A DNA stretch of 64,000 bases from Acidobacteriota bacterium (GTDB lineage Bacteria; Acidobacteriota; Polarisedimenticolia; J045): assembly GCA_025456425.1 (NCBI GenBank), contig JALOKP010000013.1, forward strand, positions 480 through 64,479, in the 5' to 3' direction. Both the position numbers and the translations under genes were made by a program. This document shows positions 3,361 through 57,215 of the stretch, one piece after another. How positions within the stretch are numbered: position 1 is the first letter of the stretch; each line of letters starts with the position of its first letter. Under the pieces are notes generated by a model that was not told the origin of the DNA, ran no database searches, and was given only the letters and a program-made list of their open reading frames with translations.

Positions 3361-3369
3361 CCCCCTACT

Positions 3370-5178: not shown

Positions 5179-5195
5179 CAGGCGGCGGAGGGCGG

Positions 5196-10225: not shown

Positions 10226-12491
10226 GCGCCGCCCCCTCCGCCTCGCCCTCTCCCCGCACCTCGATCGCGCCGTTCCGCGCGCGCGCGGCGAGGCCGCCGT
10301 CCCGCGCGGTGATCAGCCACGGCACGCGGCGCGCCGCGAGCCGCGCCAGCGTCTCCGGGTGCGGGTGGCCGAAGCGGTTTCCCCGCCCCGCCGAGATCAA
10401 GGCGGCACCGGGGGCCCCCGAACGCAGCAGCGCGTCGCCGGTCGAGCCCTTCGAGCCGTGGTGTCCCACCACCAGGATCGCCGTGCGCGGCAGGAGGCCC
10501 CGCGCCAGCAGTTCGCGCTCCGCCGCCAGCCCGGCGTCGCCCGTGACCAGGGCGTCGAGCCCGCGCCCCAGGAGGTGCACCACGAGCGACCGCTCGTTGT
10601 CCCGCACCAGGACCCCCGGCCTGGGGTGCAGCACGAGGGCCCGGACGCGTCCCAGTTCCAGCCCCTCGCCAGCCGCTACCGGGACGAGCGGCACCCCCCG
10701 CCGCGCCGCCGCCGCGTAGAGCGGCCGCAGTTCGGGATCGTCGAGCAGGTTTGCGCCGACCACGAGCCGGCGCGGCGGTGCAGCAGCAAGGAGGTCCATC
10801 GCTCCGCCGGCGTGATCGCGGTCGTTCTGCGTCAGGACCAGCGCGTCGAGCCGCGCGACGCGGCGCGCGCGCAGTGCATGGATCAGCGCCCGCGTCCCGT
10901 CTCGGGCGCGGTCGTCCGCGGCGTCGATCAGCAGCGCGCGGTCTCCGTCGCGCACCAGCACCGCCTGCCCCTGCCCCACGTCGAGCACCTCGAGCGACGC
11001 GCCCGGCGGCGCGGCCGGTGCGGGGCGCAGCGGCCAGGCGAACGACACCGCTGCGGCGAGTCCCAGCGCGAGCGCACGGCGCCCGCGCGCGGCCAGCCAG
11101 GCGAAGCAGAGCGCCTCGTGCAGGACCAGCCAGGCCAGGCCGGCCGGAGCCGCGATCCGCCCCGATCCCGGCCAGGCCGCGACGCCGCGCGCGATCGCCA
11201 GGAACCACTCCGCGCCAAGCCGTGCCACCGCCTCCGAGACCGTCGCCACGGGCGAGCCGGCGGGCAGCAGGACCGCGAGCCAGCCGCCGAGCAGCGCGGG
11301 GGCGGCCGCGGGCGCTGCGAGCAGATTCGCGACCGGCGACCAGACGCCGGCGCAGCCGGTCATCTCGACCAGGATCGGCCAGGTTGCGAGGATCGGGCCG
11401 AAGAACAGCCGCAGCCGGGGCCCCCATCCGGTGCCGCGCGCTCCGATCACGAGCGCCAGCGTCGCTGCGACCGTCAGCGCGAAAGAGAGCGAGCGCGCCA
11501 GCGCCGGGTCGAGCGCCAGCAGCAGCGCCGCCGCCCCGGCCAGCGCGGCGGCCGGCGAGGCCCCACGTCCGACCAGCCGGCCGGCCCGCGCGAAGAGCAC
11601 GGCGATCCCCGCGCGCCGGACCGGCGGCTCGGCGGGCAGCAGCACCATCGCGGCGCAGGCCGCAGCCAGCGCCACCGCGCGCCGCCCGCGACCGTGCGGG
11701 CCGCCGAGCGGGGCCAGCGCCCAGGCCGCAGCGAGCACGATGACCCCGACCTGTACCCCCGACACGACCGCCTGGTGAGCGAGCCCCGAGGCCCGCAGCG
11801 CCCCCCAGTCCTCCGGGGCCAGCGCGTCCCGTTCCCCTGCGACCATCGCCAGCAGCAGCGCCCCGGCGTCGTCGCGCGCAGGGGCAGGCGCGGGGGAGGG
11901 CGCGAGCGGTTCCGCGGGCGGATCGGCGGCGTGCACGAGCCGTGCGGTGGCCCGCGCGAGAAAGGCCGCGCGCGCGGCCGCGGCGAGCGCCTCGAGCCGG
12001 GCCAGCCCGCGCGGCGGGGCGAGCACGACGATCGACGAGGCCGAAAGGGCTCGCGGCAGTCCGCTCCCCTCGGCGCGACGCAGCGGGATCTCGAGCGTGG
12101 CCCCGGGGCGCGCCCCGTCGGGGAACCGGTCGAGCCAGTCCTGCCCCGTGCGCGGCACGAACACGCGCTCCGGCCCGGCCCCACTCAGCACCAGCAGCGT
12201 GCCGCCGCCCAGCGGGCGCGCGTCGACCCAGCGGCCCCGCGCGGGACCCGCGTCGGTGGCGGCATCCAGGCGCGGGGCGGCTAGCGCGCCGAGCGCGCCG
12301 CCGGCCAGCGCGAAACCGGCCAGGGCCCAGCCCACCGCGGACGTCCCGGCGCGCCGAACCGCACACCAGGCCGCGAGCCCGGCCGCGAGCGCGAGCGGCC
12401 CCGCGGCGGAGGCCGGGACGGCGGGGCCGCAGGCCGCGCCGGCCCAGAGCGCGGCGGCGAGCAGCAGCAGGAGTCGGGCGGCCTGTCCCAC
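10194..12491 (-). CDS. comEC: DNA internalization-related competence protein ComEC/Rec2 (with C-terminal metallo-beta-lactamase domain)
   Basis: Polytopic N-terminal/central region, then an MBL pattern: VLDVGQGQAVLV...LVLTQNDRDHAGG...VGHHGSKGS...GNRFGHPHPETL. Confidence 0.85.
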   Translation of the reverse strand: MGQAARLLLLLAAALWAGAACGPAVPASAAGPLALAAGLAAWCAVRRAGTSAVGWALAGFALAGGALGALAAPRLDAATDAGPARGRWVDARPLGGGTLLVLSGAGPERVFVPRTGQDWLDRFPDGARPGATLEIPLRRAEGSGLPRALSASSIVVLAPPRGLARLEALAAAARAAFLARATARLVHAADPPAEPLAPSPAPAPARDDAGALLLAMVAGERDALAPEDWGALRASGLAHQAVVSGVQVGVIVLAAAWALAPLGGPHGRGRRAVALAAACAAMVLLPAEPPVRRAGIAVLFARAGRLVGRGASPAAALAGAAALLLALDPALARSLSFALTVAATLALVIGARGTGWGPRLRLFFGPILATWPILVEMTGCAGVWSPVANLLAAPAAAPALLGGWLAVLLPAGSPVATVSEAVARLGAEWFLAIARGVAAWPGSGRIAAPAGLAWLVLHEALCFAWLAARGRRALALGLAAAVSFAWPLRPAPAAPPGASLEVLDVGQGQAVLVRDGDRALLIDAADDRARDGTRALIHALRARRVARLDALVLTQNDRDHAGGAMDLLAAAPPRRLVVGANLLDDPELRPLYAAAARRGVPLVPVAAGEGLELGRVRALVLHPRPGVLVRDNERSLVVHLLGRGLDALVTGDAGLAAERELLARGLLPRTAILVVGHHGSKGSTGDALLRSGAPGAALISAGRGNRFGHPHPETLARLAARRVPWLITARDGGLAARARNGAIEVRGEGEAEGAALRVRKRAGPA

Positions 12492-27280: not shown

Positions 27281-28033
27281 TCAGAGGCGGAACATCGCGG
27301 AGCCGTAGTGCTTGCGGAAGTCGGCGCCGTCGAAGCGGACGGTCCAGCACATCTCGGCCAGGCGCGAGGAGAGCCGTTCCCCGATCCGGTCGGCGAGCGA
27401 CTCCTCGGGGCGCGGCGGGGCGTCCAGCCGGTTGGTCGTGACGATCGTCAGTCGCTTGTTGTTGTAGCGCTCATTGAGGATCAGACCGAGCGTCTCGAGG
27501 ACCCAGGGGGTGGTGCGGGTCGCGCCGAGGTCGTCCAGCACCAGGACCTCGGCCTCGAGCGCGGGCTGCAGGACGGCCCAGCTCGGGGTCTCCGAGCGGC
27601 GGTCGTAGGTGTCCTGGATCCGGCGCAGCAGGAAAGAGAACTCGCTGAACAGCCCCCAGGCCCCCTTGTGGTCGACCAGCTCGCGCAGTACCGCGACCGC
27701 CAGGTGCGTCTTCCCCAGCCCGCAGGGGCCGGTCAGCAGCAGGCCGTGGTCGGCATAGGGGTAGAGGTCGACGACCTTGCGCGCCATCTCGAGCGCGCGC
27801 TGCAGCGAGGCGTTGTTGAGGTGCTGGAAGCTGTCGAGCGTGCAGTGCGCGTAGCGCTCGGGGACCTGGGCCGAGCTGCGGCGAAGCTCGCCGCGGCGCG
27901 CCGCGCGGCAATCGCAGGGGCGCGCCCCGGAGAGCCCCTCGCGGCTCTCGAGCACGAACCCCGTGCCGGCGCAGCGGGGGCAGGCCGTCTCGAGCCCCGG
28001 GGGCCGGCCCTCCGCGCTCCCCTGCGCGGCCAT
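27281..28033 (-). CDS. DnaC/IstB-like AAA+ ATPase with N-terminal zinc-ribbon
   Basis: CPRCAGTGFV...CDC, Walker A GPCGLGKTHLA, Walker B VLVLDDLG, sensor TTN. The ATG shares one base with the sigma-factor stop (TGATG). Confidence 0.7.
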   Translation of the reverse strand: MAAQGSAEGRPPGLETACPRCAGTGFVLESREGLSGARPCDCRAARRGELRRSSAQVPERYAHCTLDSFQHLNNASLQRALEMARKVVDLYPYADHGLLLTGPCGLGKTHLAVAVLRELVDHKGAWGLFSEFSFLLRRIQDTYDRRSETPSWAVLQPALEAEVLVLDDLGATRTTPWVLETLGLILNERYNNKRLTIVTTNRLDAPPRPEESLADRIGERLSSRLAEMCWTVRFDGADFRKHYGSAMFRL

Positions 28034-28911
28034 CAGTTCAGGTAGCTCCGGAGCTGCTGGCACTTCGAGGAGCGGTGCAGCTTGCGCAGCGCCTGGGCCT
28101 CGATCTGCCGGATCCGCTCGCGCGAGAGGTTCATCACCTCGCCGATCTCCTTGAGCGTCTTCGGCTCCTCGCCGGTCAGGCCGTAGCGCAGCAGGATCAC
28201 CCGGCGCTCCTTGTCGTCCAGATCGGCCAGCGCGGCCCGCATGTGGGTCTTGAGCGCGCCGCGCAGCATCACCGCGTCGGCCGACGGGATGACCTCCTGC
28301 TCCAGCTTGTCCGAGAGGTGGAACTCGTGCTCCTCGTCGATCACCTCGGAGAGCGAGATGTTCTCGTCCGAGACCTGGAGCAGCGTCGTCACGTCCTCGG
28401 GATCGACCTCCATCGCCTCGGCGATCTCCTCGACCGAGGGGCGACGCTGCAGCTCGGACATCAGCGCGGACTGGGTCTTGCCGATCCGGTAGAGCAGGTT
28501 CGCCTGCTTCTGTGGCAGGCGGAACGGCCCGCTCTGGTCCGACAGGGCGTGGATGATCGACTGGCGGATCCACCACACGGCATAGGTGATGAACTTGACG
28601 TTCTTGGTCGGGTCGAAGCGCTTGGCGGCCTCGATCAGGCCGACGTTCCCCTCGTTGATCAGATCGAGGAACGACAGACCGCAGCCGCGGTAGCGCTTGG
28701 CGAACGAGACGACGAAGCGCAGGTTGGCCTCGACCAGCTTCTGCATCGCCGCGCGGTCGCCCTTCTGGATCTTGCGACCGAGATCGCGCTCCTCCTCCAC
28801 GGTGATCCGCGGAAGCCGGGCGATCTCCTTGAGGTACTTGCGCAGCGACTCGGGGGACGACGGCCCCCGACCCTGCTGTTCCGACCGCCCCTCGCCGAAC
28901 TCCGCCGGCAT
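28033..28911 (-). CDS. Sigma-70 family RNA polymerase sigma factor (RpoD/RpoS-like regions 1.2-4)
   Basis: YLKEIARLPRITVEEE, NLRFVVSFAKRYRGCGLSFLDLINEGNVGLIEAAKRFDP, FITYAVWWIRQSI, TLKEIGEVMNLSRERIRQIEAQALRKL. Start inferred at MPAEFG (28911). Confidence 0.9.
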   Translation of the reverse strand: MPAEFGEGRSEQQGRGPSSPESLRKYLKEIARLPRITVEEERDLGRKIQKGDRAAMQKLVEANLRFVVSFAKRYRGCGLSFLDLINEGNVGLIEAAKRFDPTKNVKFITYAVWWIRQSIIHALSDQSGPFRLPQKQANLLYRIGKTQSALMSELQRRPSVEEIAEAMEVDPEDVTTLLQVSDENISLSEVIDEEHEFHLSDKLEQEVIPSADAVMLRGALKTHMRAALADLDDKERRVILLRYGLTGEEPKTLKEIGEVMNLSRERIRQIEAQALRKLHRSSKCQQLRSYLN

Positions 28912-29013
28912 CCGACCCTCCGCGGCTCGCTCCCCGCCCCCGCAGCCGGACTCATCGGCCGGCGGGGACGCGACATGATAGGGGCAGCCCCGGGTGCCGC
29001 CCACCCCGCCGGT

Positions 29014-29475
29014 TCAGTTGTCGCGTCCCGGGGGTCTCGCCACCGGGACCGCGCGGGTGCGGGCCTCCGGCCGCTTGGGGAGCACCACACGCAGCACGCC
29101 CCCTTCCAACTGGGCCGAGACCCGGTCGAGATCGAGCCCCAGCGGCAACTCGAACTTCCGCACGAACTTGCCCCGCGGGCGCTCGAGGCGGTGGAAGGCC
29201 CACTCGTCCTGGTCCTCGGGCCGCGCGCGCTCTCCCTGAACCGTCAGCAGCTGTTCGTCGACGCGGATTTCGATCCGGTCGCGCTCGAGTCCGGCCAGCT
29301 CGCACTCAACGACCAGCGCGTCCGGGGTCTCGACGACCTCGGACACCGGGCGCCAGAAGTGGACCCCTTCGCCGTCCTGCCCCGTCGGGACCGGCCCGGT
29401 CAGGACCGTCTCGAAGAGCTTGTTCATCCGGTCCTGGATCGTCAGCAGGTCGCGGAACGGGTCCCAGCTCTTCAT
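29014..29475 (-). CDS. Hsp20/alpha-crystallin small heat-shock protein
   Basis: WRPVSEVVETPDALVVECELAGLERDRIEIRVDEQLLTVQGER...FHRLERPRGKFVRKFELP...GVLRVVLPK. Confidence 0.9.
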   Translation of the reverse strand: MKSWDPFRDLLTIQDRMNKLFETVLTGPVPTGQDGEGVHFWRPVSEVVETPDALVVECELAGLERDRIEIRVDEQLLTVQGERARPEDQDEWAFHRLERPRGKFVRKFELPLGLDLDRVSAQLEGGVLRVVLPKRPEARTRAVPVARPPGRDN

Positions 29476-29571: not shown

Positions 29572-31488
<1,917 letters not shown>

Positions 31489-31641: not shown

Positions 31642-32952
31642 TCAGGGTGCGGCGGCGGCCGACTTCTCGAGGGACGTCAGGGCCCGCTCGATCGACTGCG
31701 GGGGCAGGCCGCCGGTCGGGCCGGCCTCGGCGATCCGGTAGCGATCGGGCAGGACCTCGTAGCGGTAGGGGCGGCCCCACGGGTCGCGGGCCAGGGAGCG
31801 CGGCAGGAACCCGCGCTCGACCACCTCGTCCAGCGTCTCCGGCCAATCGGCGGTGTCGAGGTAGTACACGTGGAGTCCGCGTTCGACCCGGACCATGCGG
31901 GCCGAGCTGGTCGCGCGGCGGACGTCCTCGAGCCCCGCGGTGCGGCTGAGCCAGGCCGAGGAGGCTGCCGTCGCCGGGAGCGGCAGCGCGGGTGCCCCCG
32001 GGAAGAACGACCGGAGCAGCGTCTGCCCGGCGGCGAGCGCCCCCAGGAGCGCAAGGGCGCCGATCACGAAGCCGGCGACCCGCGCGGCGAGCGGGGAGCG
32101 CAGGAGCGCCGGGGCGGCGGAGGCGGGCACGGCCGCGCTGCTCGCCACCGGCTCAACCATCTTGGCCTCGACCAGGTGGGCGAGCGTCTTGAACGCCACG
32201 AAGCGCCCGAACCCCGCGAGTTCGGCGACCTCGCCGACGGTGCGCTGCCCGTCGATCCAGCGCAGCAAGGTCCGCTCACGCTCCCCCAGCCGCGGGCCCC
32301 CGTCTCCCTCGTGGAGCGGGTCGGCCGGGATGAAGCCGAAGTCCAGGTCCTGCTCGTAGACGGTCCCCTTCCCCTCCTTGGCCTCGCTCCCGGTCGCGAG
32401 AATCCCCGCCGCCCGCGCGGTCGGCTGCAGCACGACCTCGGCCGAGGGGATGACGCGCTCGATCAGCGGCCACTCGTCGACCATCTGCGCGCCCTGCATG
32501 AGCAGCGTCTCGCAGGCGATCGGGTCGACGAACTCGCGGTCCCACGGGCTCGTCACACCGGGCTGGAAGTCGTATTCGCCGTCCCGCCAGCGGAACAGCT
32601 CGTAGACCGTTTCGCTGACCTGCAGCGTCAGCAGCTGCCGGATCGTCTCGCGGTCGATCCAGCGCTTCTCGACCAGCAGGTGGCCCAGCCGCTGGAGCGT
32701 GGCCTCCTGCTCGCGCAGGGCGGCCTCGAGCCGCTGCTCGGTCAGCTTGCCGGAGCGCAGCAGGTACTGACCGATCCGCCCCTCCGGCGCCCGCAGCGAG
32801 GTCTCCGCGGAGACGACCCGGCCGTTCTCGAACCCGACCTTGACCTGCTCCTCGCCGCGCTGCAGGACGAGCAGCCCCGTCTTCCGCTGCAGCCCGATCA
32901 GCTGGAGGATGTCCGCCAGCGAGAAGTCGCCGAGCGTTCCGGAGAGGGCCAC
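31642..32952 (-). CDS. DUF4388 (PATAN-type) / tandem MshEN-like motif / TM / GspG-like periplasmic domain protein
   Basis: N-terminus LSGTLGDFSLADILQLIGLQRKTGLLVL (DUF4388). RIGQYLLRSGKLTEQRLEAALREQ-EATLQ-RLGHLLVEKRWIDRETIRQLLTLQ. TM segment VAGFVIGALALLGALAAG. C-terminus DPWGRPYRYEVLPDRYRIAEAGPTG. Confidence 0.8.
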   Translation of the reverse strand: MALSGTLGDFSLADILQLIGLQRKTGLLVLQRGEEQVKVGFENGRVVSAETSLRAPEGRIGQYLLRSGKLTEQRLEAALREQEATLQRLGHLLVEKRWIDRETIRQLLTLQVSETVYELFRWRDGEYDFQPGVTSPWDREFVDPIACETLLMQGAQMVDEWPLIERVIPSAEVVLQPTARAAGILATGSEAKEGKGTVYEQDLDFGFIPADPLHEGDGGPRLGERERTLLRWIDGQRTVGEVAELAGFGRFVAFKTLAHLVEAKMVEPVASSAAVPASAAPALLRSPLAARVAGFVIGALALLGALAAGQTLLRSFFPGAPALPLPATAASSAWLSRTAGLEDVRRATSSARMVRVERGLHVYYLDTADWPETLDEVVERGFLPRSLARDPWGRPYRYEVLPDRYRIAEAGPTGGLPPQSIERALTSLEKSAAAAP

Positions 32953-32953
32953 G

Positions 32954-34873
32954 CTACCTCCCCGCCGTGCGGCGCGGTCGCAGCCCGGGCAGCTGCACCA
33001 CCAGCCAGAAGAGCAGCGCGGCGATCGCCATCGGCAGGCCGGGCCGCCACAGGGGAGCGGCCGAGGTCATCGGCAGCAGGCGCTCGGGGAAGAGCGCCCC
33101 GAGCAGCAGGAAGGCCCAGGTCACGGCCAGCGCCAGCCCGCTCCAGACCCGCCCCTCGTAGACCCAGGAGAGGCCCGGCCAGACCGCATGCAGCGCCGTC
33201 AGCAGCCGGCTGCGCCGGGTCAGGTGGCGCTCGATCCGCTGGGCCTGCTCGCGTCGCGCGTCGGGATCGAGCCCCTCCCGCCGGCCGAGCAGCTGCCCGC
33301 AGCGGAAGCAGGTCCCGTCCTCGCCGATCCGCGCGGCGCAGCGCGGGCATGTCGGATGGCCGCAGCGGGGGCAGGCGATCGAGCGCGCGCCGCCGCTGCG
33401 GATCCGGAGCGCGACGGCCAGCAGCAGGGCGGCGATCGCGCCGAGAGTGATCGGGTTGCCGAGGCGCAGGGCGGTCCACTTCCCCGGGACCGCGCCGCCG
33501 GTCACGACCTGGCGCGCCACCTCGACCGCGCCGAATTCGGGGTCGGCCACCTCGGCCTGCGGCAGCTCGCGCTCGAGCCGGGCCACGGTGTGCTTGGAGA
33601 GCGCCCGGGCCTGGCGCATTGCGTCCTCTGCGCCCGGGAACTGGAAAGTCGCCAGCCGCACCCGCGCCAGGTTGAACCAGGCCAGCGGGTCCTCCGGGTC
33701 GAGTTCGGCGGCGGCGCGGTACTCGACCCCCGCCGTCTCGTAGCGCGCGGCGCGGTAGAAGACGTTGCCCAGCAGGACCCGGGTGCGCGCGTCGCGCGGG
33801 GCCGCGGCCGCGGCCTCGCGCAGCAGCTGGATCGCGCGGTCGGGGTAGTGCGGGGCCAGGTGCCGCGCCGCGAGCACCTTCCAGGTGGCCTGGCGCGGCT
33901 GCTTGCCGATCATCGTGGTCAGCTCGATGAGCAGGTCGGGCTGCAGCGAGCGCTCGGCGGAGGCGACCGCGACCCGGGCCGCCGGCGACGCCGCGACCCC
34001 CGCCAGGTTGCCGACGAGGTTCGCGGCCGGGACCGCGAGCGCGAGGACGGCGAGCCACGCCATGAGCGCGTAGCGGGCCGGGCGCTCGGCGACGACCGCC
34101 AGCGCGACCGCCCAGGCGATCAGCGCCCAGGGGCCGGGCGCGATCAGCGCGACCGGCGAGAGAACCACCGCCCAGGCCAGCACGCGGCGCCAGGCCGGGA
34201 GCCACGAGCGCGGCAGCCGCTCGTCGACCTCGTGCGCCAGCTCCCCGCCGTGCCGGATCAGCAGCACGACGACGAGCCCGGCCCCGGTCGCGAGCAGGGC
34301 AAGGAAGCCCCAGCTGCCGGCCTGGAGCAGACCGCGGTAGACGGTCCAGAAGTTGCCCGAGCCGGTGCGCAGCGCGATCCAGGCGCCCGACAGCAGGGTC
34401 CCGAACCCGCCGTCGATCTTCCAGCGCGTCTTCGCCACGCCCCAGGCCGCCGCGGGGTGCTGGGGGTCGAGTCGCGTCGCCAGCGCGAAGGTCTCGCGCG
34501 CCGCGGCGAGGTCGTTGACGTGTCGTTCCCGCCGGGCCTCGAGCACGGCGGCATCGGCCAGCGGCTCGATCCGGCCGATCCCCTCCTCGCGCAGGAAGTC
34601 GAGCAGCTCCTGCGACGCCTGCGCGACCTCCGACGGGTTCCCCTGCGCGACCAGACCGCGGCGCCGCAACCAGCGAGCTTCGAGTCGATTGGTCAGCGCC
34701 GTGGCGAAGGCGGCGTCCTGCTCCGGTGTCGCCGAGCCGGCCTGGGCGGGCGCGGGCCGGGGAAGCGGCGCGGCCTGGTCCTGAGCCCGGGAGATCCCCC
34801 CGGTCCAGAACGCGAACAGCGCCGCCGCGGACGCGGCGAGCGCCAGACCCCGCGCCCGCGGCGCGCGGCTCAC
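32954..34873 (-). CDS. TPR-repeat polytopic membrane protein with internal zinc-ribbon
   Basis: N-terminal signal/TM, TPR-like helices, about six TM segments, and CPRCGHPTCPRCAARIGEDGTCFRCG. ATGA overlap with the upstream DUF1844 gene. Confidence 0.65.
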   Translation of the reverse strand: MSRAPRARGLALAASAAALFAFWTGGISRAQDQAAPLPRPAPAQAGSATPEQDAAFATALTNRLEARWLRRRGLVAQGNPSEVAQASQELLDFLREEGIGRIEPLADAAVLEARRERHVNDLAAARETFALATRLDPQHPAAAWGVAKTRWKIDGGFGTLLSGAWIALRTGSGNFWTVYRGLLQAGSWGFLALLATGAGLVVVLLIRHGGELAHEVDERLPRSWLPAWRRVLAWAVVLSPVALIAPGPWALIAWAVALAVVAERPARYALMAWLAVLALAVPAANLVGNLAGVAASPAARVAVASAERSLQPDLLIELTTMIGKQPRQATWKVLAARHLAPHYPDRAIQLLREAAAAAPRDARTRVLLGNVFYRAARYETAGVEYRAAAELDPEDPLAWFNLARVRLATFQFPGAEDAMRQARALSKHTVARLERELPQAEVADPEFGAVEVARQVVTGGAVPGKWTALRLGNPITLGAIAALLLAVALRIRSGGARSIACPRCGHPTCPRCAARIGEDGTCFRCGQLLGRREGLDPDARREQAQRIERHLTRRSRLLTALHAVWPGLSWVYEGRVWSGLALAVTWAFLLLGALFPERLLPMTSAAPLWRPGLPMAIAALLFWLVVQLPGLRPRRTAGR

Positions 34874-35235
34874 GCGCGACTCCGGGCCTCGACGTACTGC
34901 ATCTTCAGGTCGATCAGCGCCTGGTCGATCAGGCGCCGCTCCTCGTCGGTCAGGTTCCCCGCCGTCTTCTCGCGCAGCAGCTCGAGCGCCGCGATCGCCA
35001 GCCGCGCCGCAGGAAGGTCGACGTGCGGTCGGTCGTGCTCCGGGTGCGGCAGCACCCCGAGCGCGGCCAGGCCCATCAGAAAGAAGGGCTTGACGACGGT
35101 CTCGAGGCTGAGCGGAAGCTCAGTCTCGGCTCCCGCGGTCGCGGGCTCGCGGTGCAGCACGCCTCCACCCGGGAGCGGCACGTCGTCCCCCCCGCCGGCT
35201 CCGGGGGTCTTCCCGTCGTCGTCGGCACCGGTCAT
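34870..35235 (-). CDS. DUF1844-family small protein
   Basis: ...FFLMGLAALGVLPHP...DLPAARLAIAALELLREKTAGNLTDEERRLIDQALIDLKMQYVE matches the remembered DUF1844 pattern. Start at MTGADDDG is inferred. Confidence 0.6.
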   Translation of the reverse strand: MTGADDDGKTPGAGGGDDVPLPGGGVLHREPATAGAETELPLSLETVVKPFFLMGLAALGVLPHPEHDRPHVDLPAARLAIAALELLREKTAGNLTDEERRLIDQALIDLKMQYVEARSRA

Positions 35236-35368
35236 CGGCTTCGGATCTCCGCTCTGGAGAAGGTTGTTCCTCGGCGAGAATAGTACCCGGCCTTTCCGCG
35301 GTTCCAAACCGCCGCGGACCGCCCCGAACGTCTGGGGACGGCTCACCGCCGCCCCCCGCGAGGACCGG

Positions 35369-36157
35369 ATGGACTCCACCGATCGGCTGATCGCGATCAT
35401 GGCCCGCCTGCGAGGCGAAGGCGGGTGCCCGTGGGACCGCGAGCAGACCCCCCGCACGCTCCGCCCCTACGTCCTCGAGGAGGCCCACGAGGTCGCCGAG
35501 GCGATCGACGGCGGGGACTGGGACGAACTCCGCGACGAGCTCGGGGACCTCCTGCTGCAGGTCGCGTTCCTGTCGCGGATCGCCGAGGAGGAGGGGCGCT
35601 TCCGCTTCGACGACGTCGCCGCCGCGATCTCGGACAAGCTCGAGCGGCGGCACCCCCACGTCTTCGGCGACGCCCAGGCGAAGCGCGTCGAGGACGTCTG
35701 GCGGCGCTGGGACGAGATCAAGCGCGCCGAGAAGGCCGGCACCGCGGAAGACGGCGGGCCCGACGCGTCGCGGCTCGCCGGGATCCCGCGCGGACTGCCG
35801 GCGCTGGGGCGGGCCGCCGCGGTGGCCGACAAGGCCTCGCGGGCCGGCTTCGACTGGCCGGAACCGGCCGGGATCGTCGACAAGCTGGCCGAGGAGACGG
35901 CCGAGCTGCGGGCGGCGCTCGCGGCGGGCGACCGGGACCACGCCGAGGAGGAACTGGGCGACCTGCTCTTCGCCGCCGCCAGCCTGGCGCGGCGGCTGAA
36001 GATCGACCCCGAGGGGGCGCTGGCGCGCGCGACGGCCAAGTTCGTCGCGCGCTTCCGGAGTGTCGAAGAGGGCGCGGCAGCCGATGGGGTGCGGCTGGAG
36101 GATCTCGGTCCGGCGGAACTCGACCGGCGCTGGAACGCGGCCAAGCGCGCGGAGTGA
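35369..36157 (+). CDS. mazG: Nucleoside triphosphate pyrophosphohydrolase MazG
   Basis: GCPWDREQTPRTLRPYVLEEAHEVAEAI...ELGDLLLQVAF...RHPHVF, with a second MazG half ELGDLLFAAASLAR. Only the last 263 codons of ORF 32840..36157 are used. Confidence 0.9.
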   Translation: MDSTDRLIAIMARLRGEGGCPWDREQTPRTLRPYVLEEAHEVAEAIDGGDWDELRDELGDLLLQVAFLSRIAEEEGRFRFDDVAAAISDKLERRHPHVFGDAQAKRVEDVWRRWDEIKRAEKAGTAEDGGPDASRLAGIPRGLPALGRAAAVADKASRAGFDWPEPAGIVDKLAEETAELRAALAAGDRDHAEEELGDLLFAAASLARRLKIDPEGALARATAKFVARFRSVEEGAAADGVRLEDLGPAELDRRWNAAKRAE

Positions 36158-42947: not shown

Positions 42948-44282
42948 GTGTCGAACGGACGCGGCGGCGCCGTGCGCGCCTGCCGCAGGCGAGGTACGAC
43001 AGTGGATACCTTGACGCGCTCCGGCGCGCTGCTCGTCGCCCTGCTGGCCGCTCCTGCGCTGGCGGAGCCGGCCGCGCCGCCCCTCGAGCCGCGCAGCCCG
43101 GACGAACTGGCCCGCGCGGCGCTCGCTGCGAACCCGGCGCTTTCCGCGCTCGACCAGCGGCTGGAGGCCGCCCGCGCCGCCGCCGAACCGGCCGGCGCGC
43201 TGCCCGGCCCGATGCTCGAGACGATGCTGCAGAACGTCGGGCTCGACCAGCTCACGGTGGGCGACGAGGACATGTCGATGCTCGCTGTCGAGCTGCGGCA
43301 GAGCCTGCCGAGCCCGCGCAAGCGCGCGGCGCGACGGGTCGCGGCCGACGCCGACGGCGCCCTGGTCGCGGCCGAGGCGCGTGCGCTCCGGCGCGAGATC
43401 GTGGCCGAGATCCGCGAGGCCTGGGCCGCGCTGTACGCGATCGACGCCGAATCCGCGATGCTGGCCTCGGCCGCCGAGTCGTACGAGTTGCTGTCGCAGG
43501 CGGCGGCGACCCGCTACGCCACCGGCACGACCGAGCTCGAGTCGGCGGTGCGCGCGCGGCTCGAGGCGGCGCGGCTGTCCGAGCGAGCGATCGACCTCCA
43601 GGCGGCGCGGGCGCTGGTCGCAGCGCGGCTGGAACGGCTGGTCGACGCCCCTGGCGGTCTCTCGATCCCCCCCGTCGAAGCGCTGCCCCCCGTCGACTTC
43701 CCGGCCGACGGCTGGCCGGACGAGGCGCTGCGCGAGGCCGCCCCTGTGGCCGCCGCGCGGGTCGCGATCGAGGCCGCGGAGCGGCGCGCGGCGGCGGCCC
43801 GCGAGGAACTGAGGCCGGACCTCTCCGTCGGTGGCGGGGCCGGGTACCGCGGATCGCTCGACCCGGTCCTGATCGTGCGATTCGGCATCGAGTGGCCCGC
43901 GTGGAGCCGCGACACGCTGCGCCCCCGCGTCGCCGCGGCCGAGGCCGAGGTGCGGGCCGCGCGGGACGATCTCCGGGCCGCCGAGGCCGGGACCCGGGCC
44001 GCGGCCGCGCGGGCCGCCGCGCTGCGCACGCAGGCCGAGCGCCAGCTGGTGCGGGTCCGCGAGGGGAGCCTGCCGCTCGCCAGCGCCGCGCTGGACGCCG
44101 CCCGCTCGGCCTACACCGCCGGCCGCGGCGAGCTCTCCGCCGTGGTGGAAGACCTCAATGCCTGGCTCGAGGCGCGCGTCCTGGTCGCGCGCCGCGAGGC
44201 GGACCTGTACGCCGCCTGGGCCGCGACCCGGGCCCTGGTGCCCAGCGCCGAGGACCGCGCGCTGCTCGGAGAAACGCCATGA
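42948..44282 (+). CDS. cusC: TolC-family outer-membrane efflux protein (CusC/CzcC-like)
   Basis: Signal peptide ALLVALLAAPALA and paired coiled-coil repeats typical of OMFs (NPALSALDQRLEAARAA...; LPDLSVGGGAGY...). First structural gene of the CBA operon. Start could be GTG 43002. Confidence 0.75.
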   Translation: MSNGRGGAVRACRRRGTTVDTLTRSGALLVALLAAPALAEPAAPPLEPRSPDELARAALAANPALSALDQRLEAARAAAEPAGALPGPMLETMLQNVGLDQLTVGDEDMSMLAVELRQSLPSPRKRAARRVAADADGALVAAEARALRREIVAEIREAWAALYAIDAESAMLASAAESYELLSQAAATRYATGTTELESAVRARLEAARLSERAIDLQAARALVAARLERLVDAPGGLSIPPVEALPPVDFPADGWPDEALREAAPVAAARVAIEAAERRAAAAREELRPDLSVGGGAGYRGSLDPVLIVRFGIEWPAWSRDTLRPRVAAAEAEVRAARDDLRAAEAGTRAAAARAAALRTQAERQLVRVREGSLPLASAALDAARSAYTAGRGELSAVVEDLNAWLEARVLVARREADLYAAWAATRALVPSAEDRALLGETP

Positions 44283-45585
44283 CCCGCCGCCTGCGCTCGC
44301 TCGTCCTGCTGGGCCTCGTGCTGGCCGCCGTCGCCTCCGTTCCGGGCTGCTCGCCCGGCGGCTCGGAGGCGCCTGCCGCCGCGACGCTCTACACCTGCCC
44401 GATGCACCCCCAGATCGTCCAGGACCACCCCGGCGACTGCCCGATCTGCGGCATGCGCCTGGTTCCCGCCGAGCGCGCCGGCGCGGAGCGGCGCGACGAC
44501 GGCCCGCCCGAGACGCGCGCGATCGTCGAGCCCGGCGAGGAAGGCGTCCGGCTGGCCGGCGTCCGGACGGTCGAGGTCCGGCGCGACACGATCGCGACCG
44601 CGCTCCACACCGCCGGGACCGTGGTCCCCGACGAAACGCGGATCCGCCACCTGCACACGAAGGTCGAGGGCTGGGTCGAGCGGCTGTTCGTCAACTTCAC
44701 GGGCCAGGAGGTCCGGGCCGGCGCCCCGGTCCTCACGATCTACTCGCCCGAGTTGCTGGCCAGCCAGGAGGAGTACCTGCGGACGCGGGAGACCGTGGCC
44801 CGGCTCTCGCCCTCCACGCTGCCCGAGGTCCGGCGCGCCGCCGACGAACTTCTCGCCGCGGCCCGCCGGCGGCTCGAGCTGCTCGACGTGCCGGCCGCGA
44901 CGATCGCCGCGCTCGAGGCCGGGGGCCCGCCCCAGCGAACGGTCACGCTGAGCGCGCCGGTCTCCGGCTTCGTGACCGTCAAGAACGTCGTCGAGGGACA
45001 CCGCGTCGAGCCCGGCGAGGAGCTGCTCCAGGTCACCGACCTCTCGCGGGTCTGGATCGAAGCCAGCCTGTTCGAGGCCGACATCCCGCGCGTACGGCTC
45101 GGCCAGCGCGCGGCGGTCACGCTCCCATTCGATCCGGCCCGGACGCTCGAGGGGCGGGTCGTCTTTCTCTCCCCGACGCTCGACCCGGCGACGCGGACCC
45201 TCCCGGTGCGGATTGAGTTTCCCAACCCGGGGCTGGCGCTGCGCCCCGGGATGTTCGCCGAGGTCTCGCTCGACGTGGCCGCGACCGAGGGGCTCGTGAT
45301 CCCCGATTCCGCGGTGATCGACACCGGGCGCGAGCAGGTCGTCTTCGTCGAGTCGATCGATTCGTCCTTCGTGCCGCGCAGCGTGACGCTGGGCGCGCGC
45401 GGAAACGGCGTGGTGCAGGTCCTGAAGGGGCTCGGCCGCGGCGAGAAGGTCGCCGTCCAGGCGAACTTCCTGCTCGACTCGGAGTCGCGGCTGCGGGCCG
45501 CGTTCGCCGGGGCCCAGTCCGCGCCGGCCGCCGCTCCCCCTCCCGCCCCCGCCGCGGCGGGTGGCGGGCACCCGGGCCACGCGCC

Positions 45586-45589
<4 letters not shown>
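44279..45589 (+). CDS. cusB: RND efflux periplasmic adaptor (CusB-like) with N-terminal heavy-metal-binding zinc-ribbon-like domain
   Basis: Lipobox LAAVASVPGC. YTCPMHPQIVQDHPGDCPICGMRLVP. A membrane-fusion-protein (MFP) beta-barrel/lipoyl pattern follows. ATGA overlap with the OMF stop. Confidence 0.85.
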
Positions 45590-48828
<3,239 letters not shown>

Positions 48829-51091: not shown

Positions 51092-51639
51092 GCCCGACCT
51101 GGCGCCAAGTGCTCTACCGGGCCTACGCGCTCGGACACTCGGCGAAGGTGGGCGACCACGCGCCGGAGCTGTTCGCGCGGGAACGCTGGCAAGTCTGTAT
51201 CGCCCGCCCCTCGCGAGACCTGACGCTCCGGCTCGCCCGACGGATGGAGTGTATCGCCTGCGGTGAGCCGATCGCTCCGAACGGGACCGGCGATCACATC
51301 GTCGCCCGATCGCTCTGGGCCGCCCCGGAGGGGGCCGAGAATTACCTCCCGCTCTGCCAGCCGCACAACTCGAGCAAGGGGAGAAAGAACCTCCTCGCCT
51401 GGTGGCACGGCAAAGGCCTGCCACCCGCGGGGCTCGTGCCTGACCCGCTGCTGCAATTCGCGCGAGTCACCTATGCCTACGTCGCGCGGAACACTCTCGC
51501 CGACATGGACGCCCCGGCCGACGTGGTCGAGGCGCTCGAGGCGCTCGAGCTCGCGCTGCTGCCTAGCGTCGAGCACGTCACCGTGCTGCGGCAGGCGGCT
51601 ATCGACCAGGCGGCCGCCGCCCGCAAGGGGGGGGCATGA
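51088..51639 (+). CDS. HNH endonuclease domain protein
   Basis: CIACGEPIAPNGTGDHIVARSLW...ENYLPLCQPHNSSKGRKN (C-x2-C ... DH ... N ... C-x2-HN). The GTG start is inferred from the overlap. Confidence 0.7.
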   Translation: MSPTWRQVLYRAYALGHSAKVGDHAPELFARERWQVCIARPSRDLTLRLARRMECIACGEPIAPNGTGDHIVARSLWAAPEGAENYLPLCQPHNSSKGRKNLLAWWHGKGLPPAGLVPDPLLQFARVTYAYVARNTLADMDAPADVVEALEALELALLPSVEHVTVLRQAAIDQAAAARKGGA

Positions 51640-52457
51640 CACCGCGCGAGATGCGGCTCCTCTGGGTCGGCCTCGGGTATGACCGCGGCTGGTCGTTCAC
51701 CCCGCTGGACGGGAAGAAACCGCGGCTGTTCGGCTGGACGAAAGCGCCGCGCGAGACGCGCGAGCAGGCGCTCGCCTGGGCCGCCGCCGGCAACGTGGGC
51801 GTGCGGTGCGGCATCGTCTCTTACGCGCTGCTCGTGGTCGACGTCGACGTCCCGAAGGGCGCGACCTGGGAATGCCCCGTCCAAACGATCACGGTTCGCA
51901 CGGGCGGCGGCGGCCGGCACCACTACTTCGCGATCCCCGGCGGCGTGCACGTCCCGAACAGCTCGGGGAAGATCGGCCCGCACGTCGACGTCCGCGCCGA
52001 CGGCGGACAAGTCGTCTACCCGGGAAGCGTCCACCCGGCGACGGGCAAGGTTTACGACTGGCTCCCCGGCTGCGCTCCCGGTGAGGCGCCGCTCCGGGCC
52101 CTGCCGCACGACATCTTCCGGCTGCTGACCGATCCCGTGCCCGAGACGCGGGCGGTGCCGCCGGCGGGGCGCGTGGCAGCCTCCTCACGCTATGCGGCCG
52201 TGGCGCTCGAGCGCGAGCGGGACCGCGTTGCCGGCGCCCCCCGCGGCAGTCGCGGGACCACCCTCTACAGCGCTGCGGCCCGCATGGGCGAGCTGGTCGG
52301 CGCCAGCCTGATCGACGCGGCGACGGTCCGCTCCGCCCTGCTCTGGGCCGCCGAAGTCAACGGGCTGGCCGAGAGCGACGGGGAGGCGTCCGTCCTGCGC
52401 GAGCTCGAGCGCGGCCTATCTCTCGGGATCGCGCACCCCCGGGCGGTGACCGCATGA
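51636..52457 (+). CDS. Bifunctional DNA primase/polymerase (Prim-Pol, AEP superfamily) with PriCT-like C-terminal domain
   Basis: LLVVDVDVP (DxD), TGGGGRHHYF, VDVRADGGQVVYPGSVH. C-terminus YAAVALERERDRVAGAPRGSRGTTLYSAAARMGELV. Confidence 0.85.
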   Translation: MTPREMRLLWVGLGYDRGWSFTPLDGKKPRLFGWTKAPRETREQALAWAAAGNVGVRCGIVSYALLVVDVDVPKGATWECPVQTITVRTGGGGRHHYFAIPGGVHVPNSSGKIGPHVDVRADGGQVVYPGSVHPATGKVYDWLPGCAPGEAPLRALPHDIFRLLTDPVPETRAVPPAGRVAASSRYAAVALERERDRVAGAPRGSRGTTLYSAAARMGELVGASLIDAATVRSALLWAAEVNGLAESDGEASVLRELERGLSLGIAHPRAVTA

Positions 52458-53704
52458 CAACCGTCGATGACGTGCTCGCCGTCTACCGCCGGCACCTCTA
52501 CCTCGACGACCCCGGAGCAGTCTGGGTCACGCTCGCAACCTACGTCGCGAACCGCCGCCCCGGGACCCCGCTCTGGCTCCTGGTCGTGGCGCCCCCGTCG
52601 TCGGGCAAGACGGAGTACCTCCTGCCCCTGGTCGGCGCCCCGGACGTGACGTTCGTCTCCACGATCTCCTCCGAGGGCGCCCTGCTCTCCGCGACCGCTC
52701 GCAAGGAGCGCGGCAAGAACGCGACCGGCGGGCTCCTCCGGCAGATCGGGACGTTTGGCGTGCTCGTCCTGAAAGACTTCGGGTCGATCCTCTCCATGAA
52801 CCGCGACGCCCGCGCCGCCGTCATGGCCGCGCTGCGCGAGGTGTTCGACGGCGAGTGGACGCGCACAGTCGGAAGCGACGGCGGGCAGTCTCTCGCCTGG
52901 GCCGGCAAGGTCGGCGCGATCGGCGCCTGCACCCCCGTGATCGACCGCGCCCATGCAGTCATGACCGCCCTCGGGGACCGCTTCCTGCTCTACCGCCCGG
53001 ACGCGACCGCGACCGACCCCATGTGCAGCCGGGCCCTGAACCGCGACGGGCTCGAGCGGTCCATGCGGGCCGACCTCTCCGCCGCCGTGACCGATCTCCT
53101 CGCGCCGCTCGACCTGTCCGCGAACCCCGCCCACCTCTCCCCCGCGGACGTGGTCCGCCTGACCGCCTGGGCGAAGCTGGTCGCCCGCGGCCGGGCCGCC
53201 GTCGAGCGCGACAGCTACACGCGAGAGATCGAGCTCGTCCTGGGCGCCGAGGGCCCCGCCCGGGTGGCGATCCAGCTCCGCCAGCTCCTCGACGGGCTCC
53301 GCACCCTCGGGGCGGACGAGACGAGCGCCTGGGGCCTGGTCGGCAAGGTCGCGCTGGATACCATCCCGATCCGCCGGCGGCGGCTGCTCGAGCACCTCCG
53401 CTCCGCGGCCGACCCGCTGGACACAACCGACCTCGCCGTGCTGATCGACCACCCGGCGAACACGACCCGCCGCGACCTCGAGGACCTCACCGCTTACAAG
53501 CTGGTACAGCGCATCCCGAACGGGCCGGGCAGAGCGGACCTCTGGCGTATTACCTCGTGGGCGCTCGAGGTCTGGGCCACCGCCGAGCGGGCAACCTTCT
53601 CCGAAATGTCGGAAGACGTACACACCCCCTTTAATGAATTCCGAAAATCACAGACAGACATTTCGGAGAAGGTTCCCCCAGCCGTCGCGAGGCCGGGCGC
53701 ATGA
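52454..53704 (+). CDS. P-loop NTPase, putative replicative helicase partner of Prim-Pol (DUF3987-like), with C-terminal winged-helix-like region
   Basis: Walker A VVAPPSSGKTE and Walker-B-like GVLVLKDFG. ATGA overlap with the Prim-Pol gene. Confidence 0.65.
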   Translation: MTTVDDVLAVYRRHLYLDDPGAVWVTLATYVANRRPGTPLWLLVVAPPSSGKTEYLLPLVGAPDVTFVSTISSEGALLSATARKERGKNATGGLLRQIGTFGVLVLKDFGSILSMNRDARAAVMAALREVFDGEWTRTVGSDGGQSLAWAGKVGAIGACTPVIDRAHAVMTALGDRFLLYRPDATATDPMCSRALNRDGLERSMRADLSAAVTDLLAPLDLSANPAHLSPADVVRLTAWAKLVARGRAAVERDSYTREIELVLGAEGPARVAIQLRQLLDGLRTLGADETSAWGLVGKVALDTIPIRRRRLLEHLRSAADPLDTTDLAVLIDHPANTTRRDLEDLTAYKLVQRIPNGPGRADLWRITSWALEVWATAERATFSEMSEDVHTPFNEFRKSQTDISEKVPPAVARPGA

Positions 53705-53825
53705 CCCTTTCAATCTTCGCGACCCCCGACCCATTTAACGCCCGGGTGCGAATTTGGGTGGGCGCGGGCTTCTCGCTCGGTCGCTGCGAAAAAACGGCGC
53801 CGGCGGCCGGCGGATCGGAGGCCCT

Positions 53826-54239
53826 GTGAGTCACGTCCAGCGTCCATGCTCGCAGCCCGGCTGCCCGGCCCTGGTCAGCCCGGGCACGGGCTCACGCTGC
53901 CCGGCCCATCGTCGGCGGGACACCCGATACCGGGACCGCGGCACCCGGCAGCAGCAGGGATACGGGGGCGCGTGGTTGGCGATCCGGGCCCGGGTGCTGC
54001 GCGAGGAGCCGATCTGTCCGTGCGGCCGGCCGGCGACCCAGGTCGACCACGTCCAACCTCTGACGCGAGGCGGGACCCACGAGCGCGGCAACCTGCAAGC
54101 GCTCTGCGCGTCGTGCCACAACGTGAAGACGAAGCGTCAAGCCGCGGCTGTTTTTTCGGGCGGAAGCCGTGAGAAGCCGCGCCCCAACCACACGCACGCG
54201 AATCCAAGAATCCGAACGGGGGCAAATCATGGGCGCTAG
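53826..54239 (+). CDS. HNH endonuclease (phage packaging-associated type)
   Basis: CSQPGCPALV...RCPAH...CPCGRPATQVDHVQPLTRGGTHERGNLQALCASCHNVKT. GGAGG SD 5 nt before the GTG. Lies directly upstream of terS. Confidence 0.8.
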   Translation: MSHVQRPCSQPGCPALVSPGTGSRCPAHRRRDTRYRDRGTRQQQGYGGAWLAIRARVLREEPICPCGRPATQVDHVQPLTRGGTHERGNLQALCASCHNVKTKRQAAAVFSGGSREKPRPNHTHANPRIRTGANHGR

Positions 54240-54675
54240 GGGTCCGATCAGGGGCACGCCGGCGGCGCGGTACTGCGGCCCGTCCGGTCTGACGGCGCAG
54301 GGCGGGACGCGTGCGAAGGCGATCGAGGCCGACCCGTTGCCGACCGAGCCGCCGAGCTGGTTGCCGGCGCGGGCGAAGGCCCTGTGGCGGGCCACGCTGC
54401 CGCAGATCACGGCCCGGGCGACGCGGGCGGACCGGGAGGTCTTCGCGCAATGGTGCCTGGCCTGCGCGGCCGTGCGCGACCTGGCGCCGATCGTGGAGAA
54501 GGACCCGGCCCGGGGAGACGAGCTGCGGGCCCAGCTCCGGGCGGCGGCGATGTTGGCTCGGGAGCTGGGGCTGACGCCGGCGAGCCGGTCGCGCATCCCC
54601 GAGGTCGAGGTGGTGGAGAAGCAGCAGGACGAGAAGGCCCGGCGCGAGGCGACGATCGCCGCGCTGATTCGGTGA
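54229..54675 (+). CDS. Phage terminase small subunit, P27 family
   Basis: PSWLPARAKALWRATLPQI...REVFAQWCLACAAVRDL...AMLARELGLTPASRSRI matches the remembered P27-family TerS pattern. Start at MGARGP overlaps the HNH end. Confidence 0.72.
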   Translation: MGARGPIRGTPAARYCGPSGLTAQGGTRAKAIEADPLPTEPPSWLPARAKALWRATLPQITARATRADREVFAQWCLACAAVRDLAPIVEKDPARGDELRAQLRAAAMLARELGLTPASRSRIPEVEVVEKQQDEKARREATIAALIR

Positions 54676-54822
54676 TGACAGCGGGTTGATCACGGCCAAG
54701 GTCCTTTTCGGCGCGTGAAGTTCTCGTCAACCGCGATCTACTTGACTCTCTTCGCAATTTCGCCCAATCTCCCCGCGCGAGCACGGAGCGACACGAGGGG
54801 GAGCTCTTTCGCGGAGGCGGCG

Positions 54823-55377: not shown

Positions 55378-55393
55378 GAATGGGAGGTGGTGT

Positions 55394-56829: not shown

Positions 56830-57215
56830 GCACGATCTCCGGCGCCAAACCGACGCGCAAGCGCTATATCCCGCTTTCCAGCAGCTGCTCAGGGTAGCAC
56901 AGGCGGAGGGGACTGAAGGCGACACCGCGGCCGGGTTGGTTCCGGCGCCGGTCGCGACGGCCGGCCAGGGAGCCAGAGAGGTTCAACCGCACGTCCGGGA
57001 GGGACGTTGACTTCGACGGCCGGCAAGGTGCAGTCTTGTTGCGTAGGCGGGACCGCCGAGTGCGTCAACACCCGACGGCCCCTAACCCGCGACGTGGAGA
57101 TAGCCACGATGCGAGCTGTCCGAAGCGTACCGCATCCTGCGATCGTTCGGGGCGTTCTGCCGCCGGCAAGTGCCGGTCAGCCGTCGTGCGTCTCCACCGC
57201 GAGGAGGAGGAGACG

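Follow-up and report, generated by a model that had tools for sequence, protein, structure and literature searches.

The receptors of the MshEN type bind cyclic di-GMP (c-di-GMP) through two 24-residue motifs with a 5-residue spacer, which together form a four-helix unit. Supplementary table 4 of PMC5013675 has a separate class for proteins with the N-terminal subdomain only (MshEN_N). In each motif six residues (R, L, G, L, L, Q) contact the ligand, and the first Arg stacks on guanine in MshE (PMC5013675). For PATAN domains, the statements quoted in bioRxiv 10.1101/2021.06.11.447907 tell of an insertion of two helical hairpins, the alpha-clip, which was described in 2006 and is also found N-terminally in the GspE/PilB ATPases. 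The same preprint names PilB and PilC as binding partners of PATAN domains and places these domains at the membrane; it also reports that the PATAN domain of PixE binds the N-terminal region of PilB1 as well as PilC and controls pilus polarity. In this work, we have analysed 64,000 nucleotides of contig JALOKP010000013.1 from an Acidobacteriota bacterium (positions 480 to 64,479 of the forward strand; this whole stretch is hereafter the window), and describe a gene whose 436-residue product has a PATAN domain with an embedded MshEN_N unit, a single transmembrane (TM) helix and a domain related to the head of GspG-type (T2SSG) pseudopilins.

The open reading frame (ORF) occupies 31642..32952 on the reverse strand, to which all features of this gene given below refer, with a GTG start at 32952 and an end at 31642 that includes the stop codon. 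The start codon should be called correctly since homologues share the initial MALxGT, and with a GC content at third codon positions of 0.94 in a window of 73% GC the ORF is typical of coding sequence. The domain order is PATAN[MshEN_N], acidic linker, winged helix, TM helix and T2SSG-like head. The family profile, the motif counts and the alignment for AlphaFold2 derive from a sample of 114 family members with 35-100% identity, and the resulting model of the 436-residue protein shows a mean predicted local distance difference test score (pLDDT) of 84. The product is predicted to be a bitopic inner-membrane protein, and its family is found across Acidobacteriota. We propose, with a probability of about 0.55, that it serves as a c-di-GMP-responsive transmembrane envelope adaptor, working from the inside out with a partner that contains tetratricopeptide repeats (TPR).

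The component parts are known, and their combination appears to be undescribed. A membrane-spanning combination of MshEN with a pseudopilin head is absent from the architecture tables of Wang 2016 (PMC5013675) and from the DUF4388, PATAN and MshEN literature searched, and so are the TPR/Zn-ribbon partner, the associated DUF1844 gene and the distribution in Acidobacteriota. One relative carries the automatic JGI annotation 'DUF4388 / T2SS protein G'. The first-pass annotation of this gene, made from the DNA letters alone, had regarded the architecture as not described before. This appears to hold for the membrane-spanning combination with the pseudopilin head, but the pairing of PATAN with MshEN_N was already implicit in the literature: Wang 2016 placed Myxococcus xanthus MXAN_3211 among the predicted c-di-GMP-binding MshEN proteins, and MXAN_3211 is termed a PATAN protein in bioRxiv 10.1101/2024.03.11.584430, so the pairing is not new. 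In the alignment of Wang, the rows for MXAN_3211 and MXAN_1145 extend into the PATAN strand past the clip, and the same strand follows the unit here (FHWDGDFLF and FRWVDAKYRL, respectively, and LFRWRDGEYDF in our protein).

A c-di-GMP motif unit nested within a PATAN domain

The N-terminal DUF4388/PATAN domain was recognised in the first-pass annotation and is confirmed by Pfam, where PF14332 scores 116.8 bits against a gathering score of 25 (E 7.4e-34) and is matched by 114/114 relatives. The domain is split in the chain. Its N-terminal part (residues 1-55, 32788..32952; pLDDT 81-94) holds the modelled strands 4-6, 26-32, 35-42 and 45-51. The C-terminal part (residues 120-190, 32383..32595) is defined by the alignment, the model and the match to a PATAN protein of Thermomicrobium roseum, and it contains the invariant residues W122, G125, Y127 and D159-E160-W161-P162. 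Between strands 45-51 and 126-131 of the model lies the inserted MshEN_N unit (residues 56-119, 32596..32787), supported by the NCBIfam profile NF053729, by MshE (5HTL) and by Foldseek matches to PilF GSPII-A/B. This unit is the alpha-clip of the PATAN domain, inserted at the same point of the core as in PatA, PixE, PixG and the T. roseum protein WP_012642962. The MshEN motif is therefore present in a PATAN protein as had been stated, but it is nested within PATAN and does not form a separate domain after it.

For residues 59-111 (nt 32620-32778), the sequence given in the first-pass annotation is exact. They comprise motif copy 1, RIGQYLLRSGKLTEQRLEAALREQ (residues 59-82, 32707..32778), the spacer EATLQ of exactly 5 residues (83-87, 32692..32706) and motif copy 2, RLGHLLVEKRWIDRETIRQLLTLQ (residues 88-111, 32620..32691). 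The consensus used there for the comparison is the one published in PMC5013675. Copy 1 deviates from it at two positions only, I60 and K69, as claimed. In copy 2, R97 indeed takes the place of the central Gly, but W98 and I104 are also off-consensus, though still hydrophobic, and had gone unmentioned.

At the profile level, NF053729 ('cyclic di-GMP-binding domain, MshE-related') aligns residues 59-110 with its positions 1-52 of 53 and scores 45.8 bits, above the curated cutoff of 38 (E 3.7e-12), which bears out the proposed MshE-type motif; all 114 relatives match it at E <= 0.001. Pfam T2SSE_N (PF05157) gives no match to the protein at E <= 10. When the profile of the 114 members was compared with the PDB, Vibrio cholerae MshE in complex with c-di-GMP (5HTL) was retrieved at E 9e-10 and Thermus thermophilus PilF at E 1e-14, the best stretches of the latter being GSPII-B and GSPII-C, which both bind c-di-GMP (PMC12002112). 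The model supports the same assignment, with helices 56-67, 72-85, 89-95 and 101-119 arranged in the four-helix fold of MshE and PilF GSPII. Foldseek superimposes this unit on PilF GSPII-A/B with a root-mean-square deviation (rmsd) of 1.6-1.8 A, 29-41% identity and a probability of 0.92-0.99; the values for c-di-GMP-bound GSPII-B (8pdk) are 1.8 A, 40% and 0.98, and the rmsd to GSPII-A, like that to the entry 9g1w, is 1.6 A. Past residue 119 the modelled chain rejoins the PATAN sheet and the MshEN_C (T2SSE_N1) subdomain is not present. The MshEN portion is the N-terminal subdomain only, as in the MshEN_N-only receptors (PMC5013675), with which our unit shares the two 24-residue motifs, the spacer length, the four-helix unit and the contact residues. 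Two residues set it apart from them, the Lys at copy 1 position 11 and the Arg that copy 2 has for its central Gly, and its binding of c-di-GMP is a prediction. It also departs from all the architectures listed by Wang in the TM helix and T2SSG-like periplasmic domain that follow.

The positions that contact the ligand, R59, I60, G61, L75, L79 and Q82 in copy 1 and R88, L89, G90, I104, L108 and Q111 in copy 2, are kept at 12/12, with 10 identical and 2 changed from Leu to Ile (I60, I104). Across the 114 members, G61, L75 and Q82 of copy 1 are invariant and L79 is found in 111; in copy 2, Q111 is again invariant, and R88, L89 and G90 are retained in 110, 107 and 113 members, respectively. The spacer has a length of 5 in 114/114. 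Two positions vary more: residue 59 is R in 65, L in 32 and K in 10 members, and residue 97, at the turn of copy 2, is N in 34, G in 32, R in 18 and K in 10. In L085, a divergent member, Gly is found at the central position of either copy and the consensus is near-perfect, RLGTVLMKTGFLTQDQLNRALDIQ-KETLQ-RLGFILTHYGIISQDSLREAIQLQ. Overall, the ligand-contact positions of the insert are under strong purifying selection, and we consider that the insert probably binds c-di-GMP.

A tblastn search of plasmids for other PATAN proteins gave a single match, the soluble T. roseum protein WP_012642962, which was taken as a control. It aligns with residues 3-269 in BLASTP (E 1e-21) and shares with our protein the PATAN domain, the alpha-clip at the same insertion position and a winged helix after PATAN. 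In the control, the R, G and Q motif residues are lost and NF053729 finds no match, whereas the c-di-GMP contact residues are intact here. Since T. roseum keeps the fold but loses the residues, the fold alone does not explain why they are retained in our family.

In other respects the protein follows the PATAN proteins, where PATAN is a membrane-proximal protein-interaction domain, only in part. Unlike the PatA-type response regulators it lacks a receiver (REC) domain, as no Response_reg match was found with Pfam. Its integral membrane anchor differs from the peripheral localisation of PATAN proteins, and the acidic DxDFGF linker, the TM helix and the periplasmic pseudopilin head are additions to their known plan.

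Winged helix, membrane anchor and pseudopilin-like head

Behind the PATAN core follows an acidic linker (residues 191-218, 32299..32382) that is predicted to be disordered, with pLDDT below 50 and a net charge of -5. It carries the motif D-[IL]-D-F-G-F (residues 202-207, 32332-32349), which is present in ~60-75% of the 114 members, depending on the position, whereas the PATAN protein of T. roseum lacks it. A role as docking peptide is conceivable, with the TPR domain of the partner as one candidate site.

Next comes a winged-helix domain (residues 219-272, 32137..32298), with helices 224-232, 239-246 and 250-262 and a strand 266-268 in the model. Pfam MarR_2 matches weakly at residues 236-271, and among the 114 members the families retrieved include TrmB (25), MarR_2 (17) and HTH_IclR (6). 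Neither this domain nor the obligate upstream membrane partner had been mentioned in the first-pass annotation. The winged helix raises the question of a membrane-tethered transcription factor of the ToxR/CadC type, which would hold DNA with this domain and take its input from the periplasm, from c-di-GMP or from both. The MarR_2, TrmB and IclR matches over residues 219-272 agree with such a role, as does the statement quoted in bioRxiv 10.1101/2021.06.11.447907 that PATAN proteins were first predicted to bind DNA. On the other hand, the family mean net charge is -2.3 for the winged helix and -0.9 for its putative recognition helix, the adjoining linker is acidic as well, and Han et al. argue that PatA-type proteins do not bind DNA. 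As the winged helix is acidic, it probably binds protein rather than DNA, and we regard a ToxR-like regulator as very improbable.

The single TM helix expected from the first-pass annotation is found at residues 288-313 (32014..32091; Kyte-Doolittle 2.09), within a modelled helix 287-316. It is the one hydrophobic segment above threshold in our protein; one such segment is seen in 95 of the 114 members and two in 19. No signal peptide is present in the protein, and the family average of Lys plus Arg residues flanking the helix is 2.47 on the N-terminal side and 1.43 on the C-terminal side. From these three observations the 287-residue N-terminal half should be cytoplasmic and the head periplasmic, which places the pilin-like part outside the cell as had been supposed. 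The helix is followed by a Pro-rich periplasmic linker (residues 314-339, 31936..32013) of lower pLDDT, which is shorter in the more distant clade of 35-40% identity, where it appears as an alignment gap.

The head itself (residues 340-428, 31669..31935) is identified by Pfam T2SSG, by a C-terminal profile and by the model, in which a long helix 341-367 and the YYLDxxxWP segment precede three short strands within 397-424. The motif DPWGRPY lies at residues 390-396 (31765-31785), at the beginning of DPWGRPYRYEVLPDRYRIAEAGPTG (residues 390-414). For our protein, Pfam T2SSG (PF08334) reaches 20.8 bits over residues 345-400, just under the gathering score of 21, and a T2SSG match is obtained in 57/114 relatives (best 3e-7). 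The profile of the C-terminal 154 residues retrieved 7 PDB matches, all of them GspG, EpsG or XcpT, with a best E of 0.005 and an alignment spanning the Y-x-L-D-x-G-x-P helix and DPWGxPYxY. Against a library of 1.84 billion proteins the same profile found 2,522 proteins at E <= 0.001, including tandem-repeat proteins with Pfam T2SSG down to E 1.9e-42. Judged from these family-level profiles, the homology to the T2SSG head is solid. Several of the library proteins (P0180, P0201, P0216, P0218 and P0255) are made up of two to four tandem T2SSG domains or, in the case of P0255, have an N-terminal zinc ribbon. With this occurrence of T2SSG in tandem-repeat and zinc-ribbon proteins, the pseudopilin head is a general periplasmic module outside pilins.

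Like GspG, EpsG and XcpT, our protein has the long helix with Y-x-L-D-x-G-x-[YW]-P, the DPWGxPYxY segment and a small antiparallel sheet, and by the topology predicted above it would also share the N-in/C-out orientation and the periplasmic head. It differs from them in what precedes the head and in its genomic place: no class III prepilin signal (leader, G-1/F+1, E+5, pilin-type helix) is present, a 287-residue cytoplasmic domain replaces the leader, and the gene stands outside a gsp operon. A G294-F295 pair does occur in the TM helix, with Ala, not Glu, at +5, and is unconserved in relatives; TIGR01710 (GspG), with a cutoff of 88.85 bits, gives a score of 13.1. For want of the prepilin signal we reject the reading as a true pseudopilin; the protein is a plain membrane anchor that carries a pseudopilin head. 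Since the leader is absent, the head would remain tethered to the membrane and could not be released for assembly into a fibre. Of the GspG-like tail in the first-pass annotation, the relationship of the globular head stands, but neither a prepilin leader nor a gsp or pil cluster accompanies it.

Finally, a Foldseek search with the whole 436-residue model gave PilF GSPII and one pilin as its meaningful matches. The remainder is mostly noise, and the matches to GATOR1, PprA, actin and sliding clamps, all with E > 0.05, were dismissed as such.

A conserved three-gene neighbourhood in Acidobacteriota

Full-length relatives number at least 120 and are annotated merely as 'DUF4388 domain-containing protein', and at least 453 GTDB species genomes contain a relative. 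Among the best 80 of these 453, nearly all bear the label Acidobacteriota, with members of the Vicinamibacteria, Thermoanaerobaculia, Polarisedimenticolia and Holophagae, strain Mor1 among them. A single genome is given as Candidatus Binatia, and another three as 'uncultured bacterium'.

Directly upstream of the PATAN gene, on the same strand, lies a gene for a polytopic membrane protein of 639 residues (32954..34873) with TPR at ~330-430 and three CxxC at 501-525, whose stop is 1 nt before the PATAN start. The same arrangement is seen in 74/74 loci with enough sequence. Partner proteins are 612-700 residues long and combine TPR repeats and three CxxC with 5-7 hydrophobic segments. For the 75 loci with an upstream ORF of more than 300 residues, the gap to the PATAN gene is at most 15 nt and mostly 1-4 nt; most full-length upstream ORFs have 5-7 TM segments, and three CxxC are found in 56/66 non-truncated ones. 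The TPR/Zn-ribbon partner is obligate and translationally coupled to the PATAN gene. A sequence search of the PDB with it returned only generic TPR proteins and weak matches to the TPR of LapB.

The first gene of the conserved trio encodes a DUF1844 protein (PF08899, E 1.2e-19) and overlaps the start of the TPR gene by 4 nt. Its longest ORF is 34870-35457 (reverse strand, 195 residues), but close homologues have 121-123 residues, so the true start is probably M75 at 35235, which gives a gene at 34870..35235 with a product of 121 residues. It precedes the TPR gene in at least 51/69 loci, and the order DUF1844-TPR-PATAN recurs with different flanks in four loci (L001, L002, L003 and L085). For DUF1844 no relative was found in the PDB, and the literature searched holds one incidental mention. 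The homologues retrieved for the two neighbours are from Acidobacteria and carry only the names 'TPR repeat protein', 'DUF1844 domain-containing protein' or 'hypothetical'. The three genes, PATAN, TPR/Zn-ribbon and DUF1844, define a three-gene module.

Downstream, on the strand of the PATAN gene, follow dnaK (29572-31488), hsp20 (29014-29475) and a gene for a 323-residue sigma-70 family factor (28033-29004), which has RpoD-, RpoS- and RpoH-like matches that are all under the NCBIfam equivalog cutoffs. dnaK is located downstream of the PATAN gene in 39/67 loci, which makes it a frequent synteny and not part of the core module. As the trio also occurs without dnaK, a functional link to the dnaK-hsp20-sigma cluster was set aside.

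The neighbourhood also bears on whether the protein belongs to a pilus or secretion machine. In coupling proteins of the GspL and PilM-PilN type, a cytoplasmic domain contacts the assembly ATPase, one TM segment crosses the membrane and a periplasmic domain contacts pseudopilins or alignment proteins. Our protein shows the same bitopic logic by way of analogy only, as no sequence or fold relationship was detected and both the domains and the neighbourhood differ. One may nevertheless imagine that it assists a type IV pilus or a type II secretion system whose genes lie elsewhere in the genome, either as a GspL-like coupler or as a pilin mimic, in which PATAN would hold a PilB-type ATPase or the PilC platform, the head would engage the site of pilin assembly, and c-di-GMP would gate assembly. 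This fits the binding of PilB1 and PilC by the PixE PATAN domain with its effect on pilus polarity, the occurrence of MshEN motifs typically in PilB/MshE ATPases, and the homology of the head to T2SSG. In L002, moreover, a ComEC gene (3083-5440) stands directly upstream of the trio, a single case that may be a coincidence. Yet no pil, gsp or tad gene turned up among the window ORFs that were scanned, nor at distances of up to 8 kb in L001-L003 and up to 7 kb in L085, and the TPR/Zn-ribbon protein is the only invariant neighbour. The use of T2SSG as a general periplasmic module and the TM helix without pilin signature point in the same direction, so that an accessory role in such a machine is unlikely in our view.

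Proposed role and other features of the window

The first-pass annotation proposed a transmembrane c-di-GMP receptor with a pseudopilin-like periplasmic module, and the NF053729 and DUF4388 matches, the family-level T2SSG relationship and the predicted topology agree with this. Extended by the neighbourhood, the adaptor might work as follows. The protein would be co-produced and most likely in complex with the TPR/Zn-ribbon partner, perhaps also with the DUF1844 protein. The MshEN_N insert, with the residues by which MshE and PilF bind one c-di-GMP, would take up the ligand, and PATAN and the winged helix would then change their conformation or their partners. Contacts to the TPR partner would be affected, perhaps also contacts to PilB/PilC-type proteins of the kind that PATAN makes in Synechocystis, and the tethered pilin-like head would supply the contact in the periplasm. 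Of this scheme, the domain identities, their nesting, the conservation and the synteny are observed, and the topology, the c-di-GMP binding, the complex, the direction of signalling and the output are inferred. Going further, we tentatively consider that the trio is an unrecognised envelope module of Acidobacteriota, in which c-di-GMP is read by the PATAN-embedded MshEN_N and relayed through an exapted, tethered head, with no part played by a type II secretion or type IV pilus machine; this wider view is held with clear reservation.

Several observations weigh against a c-di-GMP-responsive adaptor. At the motif, the turn-forming Gly of copy 2 is replaced by Arg and position 11 of copy 1 is occupied by Lys. 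Neither copy matches the strict pattern or the relaxed PHI-BLAST pattern of Wang, since K69 breaks copy 1 at position 11 and R97 breaks copy 2 at position 10. Among the 114 relatives the relaxed pattern is matched once in 28 and twice in 1. The Lys is not disqualifying by itself, because PilF GSPII-C, which binds c-di-GMP, has it at the same position of its first motif and reads RLGEVLVQEGKLS. In 32/114 relatives Leu replaces the first Arg, and part of the family may thus bind c-di-GMP weakly or not at all. In addition, PilF GSPII-A with restored consensus still fails to bind (PMC12002112), so a consensus motif is insufficient as proof of binding, and the conservation of the motif could be structural. 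For the head, a separate C-terminal model (pLDDT 88.6) has type IV pilins as its top 3 Foldseek matches with E of only 0.2-1.5, which makes the fold evidence weak when taken alone. As for the partner, the simplest hydropathy model puts the TPR and the Arg-rich zinc ribbon with three CxxC (within residues 471-560) on opposite sides of the membrane, in conflict with the positive-inside rule. Lastly, scans of the window found no diguanylate cyclase, pilus or secretion gene nearby that would point to an output.

In a different explanation, the alpha-clip is purely structural and has no ligand, and the protein and its TPR partner belong to an envelope complex in which it is constitutively a subunit, without second-messenger input. 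R97 and K69 with the resulting pattern failures, Leu at the first Arg and the non-binding GSPII-A all speak for it, and the literature searched reports binding of PilB and PilC by cyanobacterial PATAN domains and no c-di-GMP binding by their alpha-clip. Against it stand the complete set of contact positions in our protein, both Gln, both motif Gly and the spacer length, which vary little or not at all across the 114 sequences, and the near-perfect consensus of L085. The T. roseum control possesses the fold without those residues, and NF053729 scores above its curated cutoff. We therefore regard a purely structural clip as rather unlikely, and continue to prefer the c-di-GMP-responsive adaptor.

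If the preferred reading is true, it would provide a predicted c-di-GMP receptor in hundreds of species of Acidobacteriota, which are among the most abundant soil bacteria and whose signalling is almost unstudied. Within the literature searched, this would be the first membrane-spanning receptor of the MshEN type. A pseudopilin head domain would moreover be seen in use away from pili and secretion fibres, and the PATAN alpha-clip would be a working c-di-GMP site in some lineages.

The window contains other features at a distance from the PATAN gene. PADLOC gave no match to a defence system. ComEC (Competence and Lactamase_B domains; 10194-12491, reverse strand) is encoded ~20 kb away. A cluster of signalling-type genes on the reverse strand (3370-7210) adjoins der/engA (7317-8699). 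In it, 3370-4140 codes for a protein with cyclic-nucleotide (cNMP)-binding and FHA domains, 4255-5307 for a HEAT-repeat protein and 5774-7210 for a protein of 478 residues in which a Ras/small-GTPase domain is weakly matched. An association of PATAN proteins with MglA-type GTPases has been reported; the Ras-like gene here is 25 kb from the PATAN gene.

At ~51636-58596 there is a possible integrated mobile element or prophage remnant, with a Prim-Pol gene (51636-52457), a weak match to a small terminase (54169-54675), a 416-residue ORF without family assignment and a tyrosine integrase gene (57408-58541), the end of which overlaps tRNA-Pro(CGG) (58520-58596). On the forward strand, a heavy-metal RND efflux operon (42948-48828) begins with the gene for an outer-membrane factor (42948-44282). 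It continues with an adaptor of the CusB/HlyD type that has a heavy-metal-binding domain (43892-45589), and the pump, of the AcrB/CusA type, is encoded at 45586-48828. Near the end of the window, an ORF of more than 1,286 residues (60139-63999, forward strand), which runs off the window, contains many Kelch beta-propeller repeats together with MopE-type copper-binding motifs.

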